Below are positions 1,472-9,306 of a stretch of DNA of 62,659 bases, piece after piece. The notes under the pieces are model-generated. The model made no database searches. It was not told where the DNA came from and saw only the letters and a program-made list of their open reading frames with translations. The first letter of the stretch is position 1, and each line of letters starts with the position of its first letter. Position numbers and translations under genes: made by a program. The DNA is from a virus, in IMG/VR virus record IMGVR_UViG_3300028048_000073, positions 1 through 62,659 of that record; one strand, given 5' to 3'.

Positions 1472-1590
1472 GCCTTTTGACAAAACTTTTTTTGTTTCTA
1501 CGTTTTGCACAAAAGTACAGTAATTTTTTGTATATCTTGCTATTGAGCCACTGCACGCCTTTAGTACTTTAAAGCGCTAAAGCGGCAGCG

Positions 1591-1627
1591 GCACAAAAAG
1601 AAAAAAGCGGCTTATTTTGCCGCCGCT
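1591..1627 (-). terminator. rho-independent terminator for the 1612..1839 gene
   Basis: gcggc...gccgc stem followed by a T-run on the minus strand. Confidence 0.45.
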
Positions 1628-1889: not shown

Positions 1890-1918
1890 ATAATATCACA
1901 TATCAACCTTAATTGCAA
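1890..1918 (-). promoter_or_regulatory. promoter, minus strand: TTGCAA-17nt-TATTAT
   Basis: RC reads TTGCAAttaaggttgatatgtgaTATTAT. It is preceded by a second copy of the conserved 21-mer (1941-1961). Confidence 0.45.
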
Positions 1919-1939: not shown

Positions 1940-2520
1940 CGTTTCTACGTTTTGCACAAAAAACAGGCAGCGGATTTGTTCATTTTGCTAAGTCAATATA
2001 CAAGTTGCACAAAGATTTTTTAGTGTAAAAAGTGTCGTCATTTTGCACAAAAGCTCTTTGTGCAACTTTAACAAAAAAGGCAGCGGCATTTTGTGCAAGT
2101 TGCTAAGTCAATGGGCAAAATGCACAAAACTTTTGTTCGATAAAAACCTCCGTCAAAATGCACAAAAAAGGTTACAAAGTTTTCCACATATTACAGAGTT
2201 GTAACCTTTTTTGTGCATTTTGACGGAGGTTTTCCACAGGGCAGCGGCTCAGAATATTTTTGTGCAAAATGCTGAAAATAGTTACAATTTTGTTACCTTT
2301 GTAACTTTTAAAAAATTACAATTATTACAATTTTGTAACTATTTTCTACGTTTTGCACAAAAAATGGGCAGCGGCAAGGCAAAATTTTGTGCAAATCGCC
2401 AAAAATTGTTACAAAATTGTAACTTATTACAATTTTGTTACTTTTGGGAAGTTACAAACCTGTAACTATATTTGTGCAAAATGCACAAAAATTTCATTAT
2501 GAAATTTTTGTGCAAAATGA
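1940..2520. repeat. noncoding block dense in operator/iteron-like repeats: TTTTGTGCAA / TGCACAAAA, GTTACA-N4-TGTAAC, GGCAGCGGC, TGCTAAGTCAAT
   Basis: At least 16 copies of the TTGTGCA(A/T) decamer in both orientations and about 5 GTTACA..TGTAAC inverted repeats. There is no ORF with an RBS in the block. Confidence 0.7.
2143..2233. repeat. perfect 35-bp inverted repeat (arms 2143-2177 and 2199-2233) with 21-nt loop
   Basis: Left arm aaaacctccgtcaaaatgcacaaaaaaggttacaa is the exact reverse complement of the right arm. U-runs flank both sides. Confidence 0.8.
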
Positions 2521-2704: not shown

Positions 2705-2875
2705 TTATCCTAAGAAGTATGCCTTGAGTACCTTATAGCATAGGTCAGCATTTTCTTTTCCTGTTTCTGAATCGTCTTCTGCAAATCCATTCATTGCTGC
2801 TTTGATTAATTCCTCAACAGAAATAAAAGATAACAACATCTGCAATGCTACTACATTATTGATGTTATTATACAT
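2705..2875 (-). CDS. 56-aa hypothetical protein (early gene, absent from the ORF track)
   Basis: ATG preceded by AAAGGAGA RBS; a perfect TTGACA-17-TATAAT promoter lies about 40 nt upstream; translation MYNNINNVVALQMLLSFISVEELIKAAMNGFAEDDSETGKENADLCYKVLKAYFLG. Confidence 0.45.
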   Translation of the reverse strand: MYNNINNVVALQMLLSFISVEELIKAAMNGFAEDDSETGKENADLCYKVLKAYFLG

Positions 2876-2939: not shown

Positions 2940-3585
2940 TGTGTTGTATCTATTGTGTTGTTGTGTGTGTTGTATATATGTATGTGTTGTGTGCGTTATT
3001 GTATGTGTGTTGTTGTATATATGTTTATGTTGTTGTATCTGTTGTTGTTGTGTTTATTATGTTATTATGTTATTGTTGTGTTAATGTTGTTGTGCTCTTT
3101 GTTGTGTGTGTTGTTACTGTTATGTACGTGTGTGTATGTCTATGTAGCTGTGTGTATATGCGTATATATGTATGTATATATGTTATAACAATAGTGTTGT
3201 TATGTATATGTATGTATATTAGTATGTGTGTATGTATTGTAGTGTATATTATTATGTTATTATGTGTATGTATTATTGTGTATGTTATGTTGTTGTATTG
3301 TATGTGTTTATGTATATTATTGTATGTGTTGTTATGTTGTATGTGTTTGTACATAAGTACATTGTGTTGTTATATGTCTGTGTAGATATGTATTGTTGTA
3401 TATCTATGTTGTTGTTGTATTATTTTATATTGTATTATTGTGTATATTGTTGTGTATGTTATTGTGTTATGTTTATTATATTGCTGTGTATGTTATGTGT
3501 TAGTGTTGTTGTGCTTGTCTCTTTATGTGTTGGTGTAGTTATAGTGTTATGTTGTTGTGTGCGTGGATAAGTGTGCGTGAGTAGC
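2925..3585. repeat. about 660-bp low-complexity GT-rich, C-depleted tract of degenerate TGT/TAT/GTT triplets with short (TG)n runs
   Basis: The plus strand is almost only G, T and A over 650 nt. There is no regular repeat unit and no credible ORF. Confidence 0.8.
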
Positions 3586-4252
3586 TGCTATGTGGCATCA
3601 TCTAAGCAAGTACTGCCGCATTTTATTCACCGTATTTTTATACCTCTTATTATCTCTTTCTATTGGTCTTAGCAATAGAACAATACAATATAATCTTATG
3701 TATTTATGCGCGCGTTCGGTTTGTATATCCTCGCACAAGTTTGGTTCATTACGAAACGGCTGCCCGCGCCTCAATATATACTCCATTATTTTCTCACTAT
3801 TGTTCTTCCACAAATGTTGTAATAAATATCCTTCATTAATAATATCATTCAAAATTTTTAAATAGTTTTATCAATACTCTTTAAATGTTTTTATACCTTT
3901 AAATAATTTATTAAGATAATTGTTTATAAAGCAAAATTTATTTAATTGTTTTTATTTATTTATGGCAGCGGCAAATATAAAAAGAAAATAAAACATAATG
4001 CGCTTGCTTTTGTGGCAGGTGTATTAAATAAACGGCTTACTTTTGTGGGAGGGTCCTAGGTGAACGGAGCCAAGAAAAAAAGTCTTCAGCTTCGTGACGT
4101 ACCGGGGGTATATTTTGGGATAATAAATTTGATTTTCTAAAAAATTTAATTTACCACGCACTTTCCGACAGCAAAAGTTTTTTCGTTTTAAAAAAGCGAA
4201 GCATATTTTCTAAACACCAATAACGAAAAATTTTTAAATCAATTAAATATTC

Positions 4253-4281
4253 TTGACATTGCGAAAAATTTTTGATATAAT
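4253..4281 (+). promoter_or_regulatory. sigma-70-type promoter with extended -10: TTGACA-17nt-tgaTATAAT
   Basis: Perfect hexamers; 27 of 30 positions are identical to the promoter at 21113. Confidence 0.6.
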
Positions 4282-4307: not shown

Positions 4308-5384
4308 TTGGACAATTCAAAACAACACATTCCCCTTGATTACTCAATCACAGACCCAAAAGAAAGAAAGAAACTTGTTGATAAAATCCTTGCAGAGAAT
4401 CCAAATCCCTCCAAGCAATATTTAGAAATTTTATCAGATTACATCGTTTTAGCAATGACCAAAGAAGAAAAAAAAGAAAAGAAAATCCTTACAGATAATC
4501 GCATGGTAACTGTCAACAAGCGCGAAACCTCTTATCAAGGGCTTGTATCTAAACTTGAAAATGGCGAAGATGGCTTATACCATATGATGGGCGGCAATGA
4601 TAAAAACATCATTTTAACCCCCAAAATAAGTATTACTAAAAAAGACCTTGATGAAATACCTGCACTTCAACAAATGCGCAAAGATATCGAATATTGGAAA
4701 GAAAAAGAAAAAACTGCGGTGGGCAAAGACCGTTATATCATTAAAAAAACAATCATTGAACTTTCACAAGACCAATATATCGTCAAAAGTGCTTTTCGTA
4801 ATCCCATTATAACTCAAAACACCGTAAAAACAGAACACAAAATTGATTTTGGTGAAAACTATTATATCGACGCGGAAGGCAATATTCAAAGTGATGGTCT
4901 TGTCACCCTTCTCAATCCTCAGCACGTCTCTGCCATTCTCTGCAATTATAATTTATTCAGATGCGGCGACTCAGGTAAAGACCTCACAGACCTAGTAGAT
5001 GAGCTTGACAAACTTATTGATCAAACACTTAAAGACGACTATCCTTTCTATTATGACCTTGTTTGGCTTAAAATAGATGGAATAAAAAATGCGGATATCC
5101 ACAAACAACTTAATGACAAACACGGCTACACCTACTCCGTCGAATATCTTTCAGCTTTGTGGCGCAAAAAAATCCCCAAACTTCTATCAGAGCAAGCGCA
5201 AGAAAATGCGCTTATCTGGTATTACACCGAAGTAGAACGCGGCAAGTGGAAACGTTGCTCTCGATGTGGCGAAGTCAAATTAGCGCACAGCCGTTTTTTC
5301 TCTCGAAATAAAACTGCATCCGATGGCTGGTATAGTGTATGCAAGTGCTGCCGCAACAAGAAAAAAGGAGCTGGGCAGAAATGA
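4308..5384 (+). CDS. hypothetical protein with C-terminal Cys4 zinc-ribbon; possible small terminase or DNA-binding packaging protein
   Basis: 358-aa ORF with TTG start after GGAAAGGAGGG RBS; CSRCG...CKCC motif at the C-terminus; first gene of the rightward block before terL. Confidence 0.5.
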   Translation: MDNSKQHIPLDYSITDPKERKKLVDKILAENPNPSKQYLEILSDYIVLAMTKEEKKEKKILTDNRMVTVNKRETSYQGLVSKLENGEDGLYHMMGGNDKNIILTPKISITKKDLDEIPALQQMRKDIEYWKEKEKTAVGKDRYIIKKTIIELSQDQYIVKSAFRNPIITQNTVKTEHKIDFGENYYIDAEGNIQSDGLVTLLNPQHVSAILCNYNLFRCGDSGKDLTDLVDELDKLIDQTLKDDYPFYYDLVWLKIDGIKNADIHKQLNDKHGYTYSVEYLSALWRKKIPKLLSEQAQENALIWYYTEVERGKWKRCSRCGEVKLAHSRFFSRNKTASDGWYSVCKCCRNKKKGAGQK

Positions 5385-5431
5385 TTAATCTTATTGCTAT
5401 TGCCTCTATTTAACACAAAGGAGATGATATA

Positions 5432-6691
5432 ATGCCGTTTTGTCAAAAATGTCAAAAGACACTTAAAGATGTGGCTTTTTATACATATAAAGATGGAACA
5501 AAAACAGAATTATGTAAGAAATGTTTAACAATGCACGTAGACCCCTATAAACCTGAAACTTTCCTTTGGATACTTGAAAAAATGGATATTCCGTGGCTTC
5601 CTTGGGAATGGAATCCTCTTGTGGCGAGGGCAGCCGCTAAAGGAAGCCAGTATGTTAGTGGTACCGCCATTATGGGCAAATACCTTGGAAAGATGCGGCT
5701 AGGTCAATGGGGAAAATTAGGTTGGGCGGATACAGAAAAAGAACAGGCGAAAAGAGACGCCTTAAGAGCTGAATACACTATTGTTCATGGCGAAGCACCA
5801 AAAGATAAGGAAACTCTTCATCAGCAATATATTGATGGAGAAATAACAGAAGCTCAATATAAGACTATGCTGCCAGAAGAATTAGTCGTGCCGCCACCAC
5901 CTGAAGCACCCCCAGAGCCAGTAGACCCTTATAAAGAAAACGATTTTCTGGATGAAGTGGAAAGTCCTGCGGCTCAACTATCTCAAGAAGATAAAATTTA
6001 TTTAGCCATGAAGTGGGGCAGAAATTATCATGCTGAACAGTGGATAAAGCTTGACCGTATGTATGAAGAGATGTCTAATTCTTTTGATATATCAGATGCG
6101 GATTCTAAGATAAATTTGCGGCAGCTCTGTAAGACATGGCTGAAAGCTGAAGAAGCTATTGATATGGGTGATATTGATAGTTATCAAAAGCTCAATAGAG
6201 TTGCGGAAAGCCAACGTAAAAGTGGTAATTTTACTGCCGCACAAAATAAAAAAGAAAAAGATGACTTAGTAGATTGTGTTGGAAATCTTGTTGCCTATTG
6301 CGAGCGGGAAGGCGGAAAGATTCCTCGTTTCGATATATCTGCGCCAAGAGATCTCGTTGATAAAGAAATTCAAGACCAAAAAGATTATATTCATGCGCTC
6401 ATATATGAAGATAAGGCATTGGCACAGCAGATAGAAACTTATCTAAAGAAACGTGAACTATTGGATGAAAAAGTGCGGAAGAAGCTGCTCGAGCGCGCGG
6501 GAATCAAAGAAGACGACGAACTTAACGATGATGACTTTATGGATAGATTCAATGAAATTTCTCGTGAAGTTGAGCATGACTTAGCCGTTCAATCTGGTTC
6601 TATTGATAATGAAGACAATGATGAAAAATCAGTAGAGGGAGATGATGAATATGGCTTTGTCGGATTTGACAGCCCTCTACGACAAGTATGA
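5432..6691 (+). CDS. hypothetical protein with N-terminal zinc-ribbon (CQKC...CKKC) and acidic coiled-coil C-terminus; small terminase candidate
   Basis: 419-aa ORF, AGGAGATG RBS, 3-prime end overlaps the terL start. Confidence 0.5.
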   Translation: MPFCQKCQKTLKDVAFYTYKDGTKTELCKKCLTMHVDPYKPETFLWILEKMDIPWLPWEWNPLVARAAAKGSQYVSGTAIMGKYLGKMRLGQWGKLGWADTEKEQAKRDALRAEYTIVHGEAPKDKETLHQQYIDGEITEAQYKTMLPEELVVPPPPEAPPEPVDPYKENDFLDEVESPAAQLSQEDKIYLAMKWGRNYHAEQWIKLDRMYEEMSNSFDISDADSKINLRQLCKTWLKAEEAIDMGDIDSYQKLNRVAESQRKSGNFTAAQNKKEKDDLVDCVGNLVAYCEREGGKIPRFDISAPRDLVDKEIQDQKDYIHALIYEDKALAQQIETYLKKRELLDEKVRKKLLERAGIKEDDELNDDDFMDRFNEISREVEHDLAVQSGSIDNEDNDEKSVEGDDEYGFVGFDSPLRQV

Positions 6692-6987: not shown

Positions 6988-7921
6988 AATATAAAAAAGA
7001 AGGAGGAGCACATAGTGAGTGCAAAAAACGTCCTTAGATATTTTGATAAAATTAATACAGAAGAGAAAGCCTATTGGTTGGGTTTTTTATATGCAGATGG
7101 TTCTATTTCTTCCAAAGAAGATAAAATTGAATTAGGTTTAGCAGAGAAAGATTTACATCATATTGAAAAATTTAAACAAAGTTTACAATTACCAAATAAA
7201 ATATGTTATAGGGCTTCAACAAAATCTTATAGAATTAGCTTTAGAAGTCAATCATGTAAGCAAGATCTCATTAATAAAGGTTGTGTTCCTAAAAAATCTT
7301 TAATTCTAAAATTTCCAACAGAAAAACAAGTTCCTTTTTATCTTTTAAAACATTTTATTAGAGGATATTTTGATGGAGATGGATGGTTCACAAATACGTC
7401 TGATTGTTTTCAAGTTGGCATCATTGGAACACAGGACTTTATTCAAGGGTTTTTAAATGCAGTAGAAAACATTAATAAAACAAATAAAATTTTTAGTGTT
7501 CATAGAGAAAACGGTGCAAAAAGATACATATTTGGAGCTTATAATGATGTCTTAAATTTTTTAAATTGGATTTATAAAGATTCAACAATTTATTTAGATA
7601 GAAAATATGAATCTTATTTAGATTTTATTCAAAATGGAAGTAAATATCATAAATAATAATTTTTATATGCCGCCATATTAAAGTAATTTAATATAAGAAA
7701 ACTGCGGAATTAAGCGGGGAAGCTGAGATGCTAATCCGAACCGAAGGCCAATAAATAAAAGGATTGGTCAGGGGCAACGCATAGGGGGTGACGAAAGAAT
7801 AATCTCTCCACGAGGCCGCAGCTCCTTTGAAAGGATGAAAAGATATGCTAGACTTATACGAAAGCAAGTATAAGATTTTATGGATAAAAAGCCATAAAGA
7901 TAATATAATCGAAAGAACAAG
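6988..7921 (+). mobile_element. putative group I intron (about 934 nt) interrupting terL, carrying a LAGLIDADG homing-endonuclease ORF
   Basis: The two terL halves are in-frame homologues of contiguous gp17 sequence. The intervening sequence has stops, its own RBS, and a 3-prime 260 nt with P/Q/R/S-like core elements (attaagcggggaagc, taatccgaacc, ggtcaggggcaa, aagaataatctctcc). The modelled exon 1 ends in T and the modelled intron ends in G. Confidence 0.6.
7015..7656 (+). CDS. LAGLIDADG-family homing endonuclease (two motifs: LGFLYADGSI and IRGYFDGDGWF)
   Basis: 213-aa ORF inside the terL interruption, GTG start after GAAGGAGG RBS. Confidence 0.8.
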   Translation: MSAKNVLRYFDKINTEEKAYWLGFLYADGSISSKEDKIELGLAEKDLHHIEKFKQSLQLPNKICYRASTKSYRISFRSQSCKQDLINKGCVPKKSLILKFPTEKQVPFYLLKHFIRGYFDGDGWFTNTSDCFQVGIIGTQDFIQGFLNAVENINKTNKIFSVHRENGAKRYIFGAYNDVLNFLNWIYKDSTIYLDRKYESYLDFIQNGSKYHK

Positions 7922-9306
7922 CCTCAAGCATTACACTATCTAAAGTCGAAGAGCTCTGTAAGCTATTACCATTCTTACAGAATGAAATCAATTGGGAGCG
8001 TGGGGAAACAAGAAAAACAAAAGATGATGTATGTTACAAATTTAAAAATGGTTCAATTATAGATATTCTTGCAGCAAAAGAAAGTTCAAGAGGGCAAAGA
8101 AGACACTCTGGATTGATGGAGGAGTGCGTTCTTATAGATCAAACTGCTTTGAATGAAATAATTATCCCAACGACGAATGTGAACAGGAACCTTCCGGACG
8201 GATCAACTGACCCTAAGGAGATTGTGAACAAGAGCCAAGTGTATATCACCACAGCAGGCTGGAAAGCCTCGTTCGCGTACACAAAACTTATTGAACTATT
8301 GATTCAATCAATTATTGAACCAGATGAAGTCATGATTGCGGGAGGTACCTATGAAACGCCTGTACTCGAAGGGTTATTAGATGAAAACTTCGTTAATCAG
8401 TTACAGCTACAAGATACTTACAATGAGGATTCCTTTGACCGAGAGTACAGGTCTCGTTGGAGTGGAGATGTGGCGAACGCATTCTTCTCTGCGGAAAAAT
8501 TTGATAGATATAGAGTGCTGAAACAGGCTGAATACGAACATAGCGGCCGCTCCTCAAAAACAGCTTATTATGTATTTGGCGTGGATGTTGGACGCTTTGA
8601 TTGTACTACTGAGGTACTTGTTTTTAAAGTTACGCCTCAACCGCAGGGTCCAGCAATCAAATCGCTTGTTAATATTTATACCCTAAATGCAGAGCACTTT
8701 GAAGACCAAGCAATTAAATTGAAAAAACTATTCTTCAAATATCATGCCAAATGTATTGCTATTGACGCAAATGGCGTTGGTGCAGGTTTAGTTGACTATC
8801 TCGTAAAAGCTCAAACCGACCCAGATACTAATGAATATTTACCGCCTTTTGGCGTTGAGAATGATGATGATGGAAAATATAAGAATTTTAGAACTCCAGA
8901 TATGGAAGAAGATGCATTGTTCTTAATCAAAGCAAATGCGCCAATGAATACAGAAATGTATGCTTATGCAAAAGTACAAATGATTAATGGTAAGATTAAA
9001 CTATTAATTGATGAGTCTCAAGCAAAAGCAACACTTATGTCTACAAAGGCAGGACAAGCGATGAGTATCGCGCAACGCAATGATTATTTAAGACCTTATG
9101 TTTTAACAACTGTTTTAAGAGAACAATTGCTTAATCTCTCGCAAGAAAATGAAGGATTAAATATTATTCTTAAACAAGTATCTAAGACAATCAAAAAAGA
9201 TAAATTCTCTGCTTTTATATATGGACTTTACTATATTAAAAAGTATGAAGATTCGAAACATAAACGAAAGAAAGTTAGACTTTCTGATTATATGTTCTAT
9301 ACATAA
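7922..9306 (+). CDS. terL: large terminase subunit, exon 2 (Walker B / coupling motif / nuclease domain)
   Basis: SSSITLSKVEELCKLLPFLQ...NGSIIDILAAKESSRGQRRHSGLMEECVL aligns with gp17 [21 protein letters not shown]...[30 protein letters not shown]. The frame is open from 7909. Confidence 0.75.

Follow-up and report, generated by a model that had tools for sequence, protein, structure and literature searches.

What are the short palindromes for that crowd a gene-free block near the left end of the viral record IMGVR_UViG_3300028048_000073, and which protein would read them? The block (1941-2526, hereafter the hub) lies in a 62,659-nucleotide (nt) stretch of that record, analysed here over its whole length and called the window. 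A first-pass annotation had proposed either that it is an array of operators, bound by a regulator whose gene lies elsewhere or which comes from the host, or that it consists of replication-origin iterons. The first of these proposals is the one that our analysis supports, as the 21-base-pair (bp) palindrome of the hub, whose putative binder we call factor X, recurs at promoters of Clostridia and in unrelated phages, which points to a host factor. We therefore favour, with about even confidence, the view that predicted sites for a dimeric host DNA-binding protein are packed into the hub at high density and in helical phase, wired to the early promoters, and that by this means the virus probably links its early control region with a regulator of the host.

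The repeated words are far more frequent than dinucleotide composition predicts. The 8-mer TTTGTGCA has 21 exact copies on the two strands of the 62.7-kilobase (kb) window, compared with 4.32 ± 2.31 in 100 dinucleotide shuffles, none of which reached 21. Seventeen copies lie at 776-2514 and 13 inside 1940-2520, and the earlier count of at least 16 copies at 1940-2520 thus holds for the first 2.5 kb but not for that interval. Likewise, GGCAGCGG occurs six times (0.23 expected), on the plus strand only and always below 4 kb, and GTTACA-N4-TGTAAC occurs ten times in the whole window with up to two mismatches (2.5 expected). Six of the latter are in the hub, two of them exact (2408 and 2451), in agreement with the five or more that had been claimed. 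Two head-to-head pairs of TTTGTGCA were recovered as described, a perfect 19-bp palindrome TTTGTGCA-AAA-TGCACAAA at 2471-2489 and the pair TGCACAAA-agctc-TTTGTGCA at 2044-2064, and so were the two copies of TGCTAAGTCAAT, both exact (1986 and 2101), while looser matches to the latter stay at chance level. The threefold composite TGCACAAA-(GGCAGCGG)-TTTGTGCA is real, but two consensus halves are present only in the copy at 2354-2393; at 1953-1982 the right half reads TTTGTTCA, and at 2068-2097 the left half reads TTAACAAA.

When all copies are aligned, a conserved TTTTGTGCA is followed by three variable bases and then by T/C-G, giving a 21-bp palindromic unit TTTTGTGCA-N3-TGCACAAAA in which commonly one half is strong and the other weak or degenerate. 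Judged from these alignments, the two motif families and the composite element of the first-pass annotation appear to collapse largely into one grammar: the GTTACA palindromes stand as a separate family, whereas the remainder consists of strong and weak half-sites and a GC-rich linker. Thus, TGCTAAGTC is the weak half of two X sites and GTTTCTACG that of three, and GGCAGCGG sits in the 12- or 22-nt linker between adjacent X sites spaced 33 or 43 bp, that is, three or four helical turns. Its copies are at 1966-1973, 2079-2086, 2240-2247 and 2367-2374 in the hub and at 1584-1591 and 3964-3971 outside it. Across phage and host loci, facing half-sites are 10 bp apart, start to start, in 24 of 28 pairs, and back-to-back pairs fall at 22-24, 31-33, 43-45 and 60-65 bp, in steps of one helical turn.

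From its left edge, the hub begins with the site GTTTCTACG-TTT-TGCACAAAA (1941-1961, a weak and a strong half), followed 33 bp on by the weak site ATTTGTTCA-TTT-TGCTAAGTC (1974-1994), which contains TGCTAAGTCAAT. The site GTGTCGTCA-TTT-TGCACAAAA (2032-2052) has a TGACG-type weak half that recurs in the phage relative L130 and in the host locus L246. Next come CTTTGTGCA-ACT-TTAACAAAA (2056-2076) and, 33 bp from it, TTTTGTGCA-AGT-TGCTAAGTC (2089-2109), then CAATGGGCA-AAA-TGCACAAAA (2109-2129), TTTTGTGCA-AAA-TGCTGAAAA (2258-2278) and TTTTCTACG-TTT-TGCACAAAA (2342-2362). The last of these is 43 bp from TTTTGTGCA-AAT-CGCCAAAAA (2385-2405), with GGCAGCGG in the 22-nt linker. The best site, ATTTGTGCA-AAA-TGCACAAAA (2470-2490), is identical to the host-type palindrome, and the array ends with TTTTGTGCA-AAA-TGACGGGTC (2506-2526), strong in its left half. 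A perfect 35-nt inverted repeat (2143-2233, arms 2143-2177 and 2199-2233) carries in each arm one strong half-site (2159-2166 and 2210-2217) and one GTTACA unit, and two longer, imperfect inverted repeats of the region have arms of 38-53 nt. The six GTTACA-N4-TGTAAC-type palindromes (2190, 2281, 2324, 2408, 2426 and 2451) are interleaved with these elements.

The same unit is found at the early promoters. Small leftward genes occupy 97-1851, every one of them with a sigma-A-type promoter and a terminator, and the motif lies upstream of four early leftward promoters (734-706, 1108-1080, 1471-1443 and 1918-1890), as the first-pass annotation had noticed, with 8-mer copies ending 31-41 nt and full sites 10-22 nt upstream of the -35 hexamers. 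The promoter at the left edge of the hub (1890-1918, minus strand; TTGCAA-17-TATTAT, TG-extended) has the site 1941-1961 22 nt upstream of its -35 hexamer. The same distance separates the site at 1494-1514 from the -35 hexamer of promoter 1471-1443, in a paralogue of the cassette 1889-1961. A dyad TACACAAA-N14-TTTGTGCA (1119-1147) is placed 10 nt upstream of the -35 hexamer of promoter 1108-1080, and a further site (775-795) lies upstream of promoter 734-706. More promoter-proximal copies were found at early promoters of the relatives L122, L123 and L127.

These relatives, found on metagenomic contigs of 138-150 kb, also carry the hub itself. Its identity to the window is 92-98% in L122, L123 and L127, compared with 74-76% for the adjacent 56-amino-acid (aa) gene; the 1.3 kb beyond that gene cannot be aligned, and the phage sigma-like proteins of the three are 93%, 79% and 77% identical to that of the window. 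In more distant phages the hub is no longer alignable, yet X sites persist in the same early region: L130 (sigma-like protein 59% identical) has two X-site hubs there, with copies ending 8-11 nt upstream of consensus promoters, and L133 (43%) has an X-site cluster. Substitutions at motif positions among the four near-identical hubs number 3 of 104, which gives too little power for a comparison with non-motif positions. The feature is real, strongly non-random and conserved. DNA-level searches of deposited phages, near and distant, with the hub region gave no match.

The palindrome is likewise present in phages outside this lineage. An exact scan of viral contigs for the 19-mer returned 13 contigs with GC contents of 0.29-0.46 and several copies apiece, part of which are distant members of the same superfamily (SPbeta-like gut phages). 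A looser scan yielded at least 119 stretches with the palindrome; the 112 newly fetched ones that were analysed span GC contents of 0.27-0.63, and 43 of them have at least four half-sites inside 600 bp. A 15-mer scan of viral contigs was too unspecific and gave only single chance matches. Four contigs (L136, L138, L139 and L140) are phi29-like, with a protein-primed-type polymerase, an upper collar connector and a terminase, and these carry 4-6 X palindromes in each inverted terminal repeat of about 350 bp. In L139 and L140, which are phi29-like genomes of 14.0 kb, each terminal repeat also has a second repeat, TTATCGTAAAACGATAAA.

In bacteria, perfect matches to a pattern of 18 specified bases were sought in a collection of 596 gigabases (Gb), and at least 120 were obtained, compared with 9-25 expected by chance according to our own estimate for 596 Gb. 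Among the matches listed, to which the following figures refer, 80 titles include 57 from Clostridia/Bacillota, ten from Streptococcus and nine from other phyla; the genomes reach 66% GC, and the sites occur singly, 101 of 120 of them outside long open reading frames. The site precedes rpsJ in six different genomes, and other genes behind it are gap, recA, radA, glnA, nrdD, mraZ and msmK as well as those of G5/3D-domain wall proteins and many secreted proteins. Strong sigma-A-like promoters pointing away from the host site number 42 at distances of 10-59 bp, whereas the remainder of these host loci would predict about 2.7, and none was found at 0-9 bp. The distances bunch near 17, 30, 40, 50 and 61 bp, with a period of 10.0 bp (vector strength 0.39, p ~0.014 against a uniform null). 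Such a position, 10-60 bp ahead of a sigma-A-type promoter and approximately in register with the helix, corresponds to the geometry of an upstream activator. Frequently, the host palindrome is followed by a GC-rich linker of 10-11 nt and a third half-site such as ATTTTCTACA, and the same composite occurs in the hub. The Streptococcus matches represent one orthologous hairpin and T-run terminator upstream of msmK and were set aside as a probable coincidence. As a separate observation, a conserved module of the palindrome and TGRCGRTTTTGTGTAAC is located about 200-250 bp upstream of a gene for a PqqD-like small protein in L168, L175, L184, L193 and L212 (five Oscillospiraceae, Ruminococcus or Clostridia genomes) and may belong to a gene cluster for peptide maturation that the same factor would control.

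We infer from this distribution that a host protein would bind the hub and would activate or gate early transcription. Factor X would most likely not be phage-encoded but supplied by the Clostridia host, and would act as a dimer from upstream of sigma-A promoters. At no fewer than four early leftward promoters, single X units would work from the upstream position that they have in the host, and about 13 further sites would be piled into the hub beside promoter 1918-1890 as a cooperative platform. The early promoters at which the phage would use this host factor have to be active ahead of the first phage proteins. As candidate additional functions, the hub may enhance promoter 1918-1890 over a long range, may soak up the factor once the copy number is high, or may help in replication.

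Several results weigh against this interpretation. In full-text literature searches, the motif matched nothing but primers and systems of other kinds, and no binder. A promoter scan found no strong sigma-A promoter in the hub interior, so activator sites there would have no obvious target except promoter 1918-1890. The periodicity of the host distances is only moderately significant, and the host set is confined to the perfect matches listed. Some host copies and some phage dyads are inside longer hairpins followed by T runs (the Streptococcus locus upstream of msmK, L148, L246 and L123 at 1529-1558), and hence part of the signal may be a terminator-like structure rather than protein binding. 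The high hub identity among close relatives could partly result from recent recombination, and the X arrays that protein-primed phages have in their terminal repeats would suit replication no less than transcription.

Which known arrangement does the hub resemble? The Spo0A boxes of phage phi29 were reportedly described by Meijer, Castilla-Llorente, Salas and co-workers as sites for a global host regulator, at early promoters and near replication origins or genome ends, through which the state of the host influences the development of the phage. The likeness consists in host-regulator sites gathered by a phage: the X motif is shared with sites upstream of host promoters and lies at early promoters (in the window and L130) and at genome ends (in the terminal repeats of L140), and the half-site TTTGTGCAA resembles the 0A box TTTGTCGAA. 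The core is GC here but CG in the 0A box, the X sites are inverted with a 3-bp spacer whereas 0A boxes are tandem and head-to-tail, and the density of about 13 sites in 580 bp is far higher here. CRP-type class I activator sites and Fis sites lie upstream of strong promoters. X sites resemble them as palindromes 10-60 bp upstream of the -35 hexamer, in helical register, at ribosomal-protein and other highly expressed genes, but no Fis homologue is known in Firmicutes, and factor X would be a putative activator. The inverted terminal repeats of adenoviruses, whose linear genomes are protein-primed, carry sites for the host transcription factors NFI and Oct-1. The X sites within the terminal repeats of the phi29-like L139 and L140 recall this arrangement, although the adenoviral system is eukaryotic and the replication role in the phages a putative one. 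Overall, a phage array of host-regulator sites is of a known kind; what is new is the unusually high density and a widely distributed, apparently undescribed motif.

The consensus sequences of DnaA boxes, CRP/FNR, Rex, Spo0A, GlnR/TnrA, NrdR, CIRCE and LexA were compared by eye, and each was rejected for its core or its spacing. A CRP/FNR-family protein, which the first-pass annotation had offered as a candidate binder, does not fit in spacing: TTGTGCA-N3-TGCACAA is one base shorter, and of odd length, compared with the CRP/FNR or Rex boxes TGTGA-N6-TCACA, TTGAT-N4-ATCAA and TTGTGAA-N4-TTCACAA, with a spacing of TGTG-N7-CACA instead of N8. Upstream of a host nrdD gene (L149), the NrdR box is located beside and not inside the X site.

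The GTTACA-N4-TGTAAC palindromes are a second, separate family of sites, specific to this phage lineage, and the exact unit GTTACAATTTTGTAAC was not clustered in the other viral contigs scanned. L125 has about 26 such units in strict 20-bp tandem period at 8280-8790 and, in addition, pairs 41 bp apart (437/478, 1225, 2191/2232), one of which abuts the -35 hexamer of three paralogous early promoters, the place held by an X site in the window. WalR (YycF) has the consensus TGTWAH-N5-TGTWAH (PMC9210968). The six hub units match it on both strands with at most one mismatch, which is nearly always at the first T, and the whole window has 42 matches of this type compared with 24 expected. In the host loci L159 and L224, GTTACA-type units lie upstream of genes for G5/3D-domain cell-wall proteins, and the L125 units abut the -35 hexamer in the manner of OmpR-family activator sites; the GTTACA units are, however, true palindromes whereas WalR sites are direct repeats, and the mismatch at the first T is systematic. 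The resemblance of the units to WalR sites is a lead to a candidate binder. Other relatives have other boxes: L130 has seven Rex-like TTGTTAA-N4-TTAACAA boxes with up to two mismatches (3366-3593 and 7186-7334), a type absent from the window, and L003 has four LexA/Cheo-like CGAAC-N4-GTTCG boxes at 4331-6268 (0.1 expected), with one perfect Cheo box each in L125 (8899) and L130 (3759). The presence of Rex-like, LexA-like and WalR-like boxes at equivalent places suggests that these phages gather host-regulator sites in their early-region hubs.

Could the hub instead be a replication origin, or an auxiliary to one? By analogy with the adenoviral host-factor sites, the phased array and a GTTACA-binding factor would organise a nucleoprotein complex beside AT-rich DNA and so aid the start of phage replication, a scenario that we regard as unlikely although it accounts for several features. 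Gene orientation and GC skew both flip at the hub region, where the cumulative GC skew has its minimum; the surrounding 2.4 kb are gene-poor and divergent, with large inverted repeats and an AT-rich stretch (2296-2345); and the same palindromes fill the inverted terminal repeats of phi29-like phages, where protein-primed origins lie. The skew, however, tracks gene orientation and is thus not independent evidence for an origin, and the whole region is AT-rich. The assemblies of the relatives L124, L128 and L129 break at the hub, but such breaks are expected at any repeat-rich region. Iterons, as proposed in the first-pass annotation, would be tandem direct repeats of 17-22 bp, whereas the sites here are palindromic or of mixed orientation with spacings of 20-85 bp. 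No initiator (Rep) gene lies within 2 kb; the polymerase and helicase genes are at 55.9-62 kb, and the replication genes begin about 48 kb from the hub. A cluster of DnaA boxes (TTATCCACA or TTWTNCACA) was considered and rejected, as the conserved 9-mer is TTTTGTGCA and TTTTGCACA, which fits TTWTNCACA, arises only when the spacer is TTT or AAA, on the variable side of the motif; TTTTCCACA has two copies (2181 and 2232). The same motif, moreover, stands upstream of host promoters and at four phage early promoters.

A second alternative, which we consider still more doubtful, is that the array serves a phage-encoded regulator for immunity or early shutoff, and that the host copies belong to a host homologue of similar specificity. 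In SPbeta, ten promoter regions share the 15-bp motif SPBRE, which is confined to the prophage and bound by the phage-encoded master repressor MrpR (YopR), a protein with a tyrosine-recombinase fold (PMC10516654). The lineage is related: YonG_N, YonD_N and YonB domains occur in syntenic genes, and here, too, a short motif first noticed in silico lies in many early or intergenic promoter regions, with dispersed promoter-proximal copies at four leftward promoters laid out like SPBRE. Furthermore, the palindromes at corresponding places vary from relative to relative, a pattern of heteroimmune phages (GTTACA in L125, Rex-like in L130, LexA-like in L003). In SPbeta, however, the sites are single and dispersed, with no 600-bp hub, whereas the X motif extends to host chromosomes and unrelated phages. 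It is common to phages whose sigma-like proteins are 43-59% identical, to phi29-like phages and to Clostridia housekeeping promoters, with at least 120 perfect bacterial copies (at rpsJ, gap, recA, glnA and others) rather than confinement to the phage, and a private repressor co-evolving with its sites would not give this spread. No gene was called in the hub of the relatives either, in line with the earlier statement that the block encodes no regulator. No MrpR-like or helix-turn-helix (HTH) protein was found in the window or beside the hub, with about 75 kb of the genome lying outside the window, and Pfam and PHROGs searches with the small neighbouring proteins of the window and the relatives found no DNA-binding domain. 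Finally, the early promoters have to be active when no phage protein has yet been made, which speaks against a phage regulator.

That the repeated words are merely stems, of cruciforms, hairpin terminators or a structured non-coding RNA, is very improbable. The perfect 35-nt inverted repeat, the two with arms of 38-53 nt and the copies elsewhere within hairpins preceding T runs speak for structure, and the hub does give hairpin-type matches, but in searches with Rfam covariance models these were only sub-threshold chance matches to microRNA (miRNA) hairpins and no family reached its gathering score. In L122 and L127, all three substitutions in the 35-nt arms are uncompensated, while a neighbouring GC-rich hairpin (2524-2556) shows compensatory T>G/A>C changes in its outer stem, a contrast that favours protein sites over DNA or RNA structure. 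Stems, moreover, do not require that 18 bases be kept across genomes of 27-66% GC, and phase with -35 hexamers along the helix is a feature of DNA rather than of RNA. A partition centromere or a packaging (pac) site, with repeats to which a segregation or terminase protein would bind, has equally slight prospects: the 20-bp period of the L125 GTTACA array looks parC-type and a terminase gene lies about 6 kb to the right of the hub, but the window has only six irregularly spaced GTTACA units, those of L125 also occur at early promoters, the hub has no par, tub or small-terminase gene beside it, a par-like neighbour is lacking in the window as well as in L125 and L122, and the contig ends of relatives are inconsistent with a fixed terminus.

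The wider gene layout, from which the phage was placed, is as follows. By its portal, YonG_N/YonD_N/YonB-type structural genes, PolC-like polymerase, NrdDG and phage sigma-like gene, the window is assigned to a large SPbeta-like phage of a low-GC Firmicute. After 1851, the gene-poor region comprises the hub, the GC hairpin, the leftward 56-aa gene (2705-2875, minus strand), a GT-rich tract and the promoter (4253-4281) of the sigma-like gene (4308-5384); the neighbours of the hub are proteins of 56-87 aa without assigned function and the sigma-like gene. The GC hairpin (minus strand), GGGTCGC...GCGACCC with an inner GGCGC/GCGCC stem, is separate from the array and probably is the terminator of the 56-aa gene. 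The GT-rich tract (2940-3560) is a low-complexity, almost C-free sequence of 620 bp (plus strand: A 109, C 19, G 151, T 342) directly upstream of a perfect leftward promoter (2939-2911). L123 retains the tract in a much-altered form, in L122 and L127 it can no longer be aligned, and L125 has other repeats in its place.

Further elements were noted around the sigma-like gene and the early genes. In all relatives, a conserved box ACCGGGGGTATATTTTGGGA (with variants ACCCGGGGTATATTATGGGA and similar) precedes the sigma-like gene by about 190 bp (window 4101-4121, L125 9779-9800, L122 ~9770, L130 7752-7775); it could serve as an operator or a promoter specific to the phage. Repeated TTTTCGTTTTAAAAAACGAA-type hairpin units (window 4170-4200, L125 9880-9930, L123 9830-9880) immediately precede the promoter of the same gene. 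Inverted repeats of the CTTTAACGCTTTAGTGCGCTAAAG type lie beside GGCAGCGGC copies (window 1535-1600, L123 7100-7260), and the similar CTTTACCACTTTAACGCACTAAAGTG follows a consensus promoter in L130 (3700-3745); this may be a small RNA. Between the YonG-like gene and the terminase/portal genes, different relatives carry insertions of different homing-endonuclease genes (HNH_3/NUMOD, LAGLIDADG, GIY-YIG; L123 12896-17388, L127 12697-13341, L129 8114-9784, L130 14192-15034).

A protein family of 120-143 aa, often present as 2-3 tandem paralogues, is encoded beside X-site clusters in 13 related contigs (L131, L132, L135, L141, L381, L397-L399, L423, L428 and others), with homologues in L130 (1093-1461) and L125 (1627-1989). 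Its C-terminus is winged-helix-like as judged by eye only; no significant Pfam or PDB match was obtained for the family, and no member was found in the window. As binder of the X sites the family was rejected, since its link with the clusters is one of synteny and not an independent association.

Going further, we tentatively suggest, with less confidence than in the array itself, that TTTTGTGCA-N3-TGCACAAAA may be recognised by a hitherto undescribed global factor that would act from upstream of promoters in gut and rumen Clostridia, would serve those of ribosomal-protein, glycolytic, DNA-repair and cell-envelope genes, and would have its sites hoarded by at least two unrelated phage lineages; single sites would fire the early promoters, and arrays of at least ten sites would become a sink after genome multiplication, stripping the factor from host promoters and switching off the early genes. 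Very little is known about the control of early transcription in the abundant large phages of gut Clostridia, whose hosts have few mapped regulons. If the main interpretation is right, the 21-bp sequence would serve as bait for a widely used but unnamed host DNA-binding protein and would predict its regulon, and many phages would be predicted to sense or hijack it. The general design suggested is one of early-region hubs that collect sites for physiological regulators of the host.

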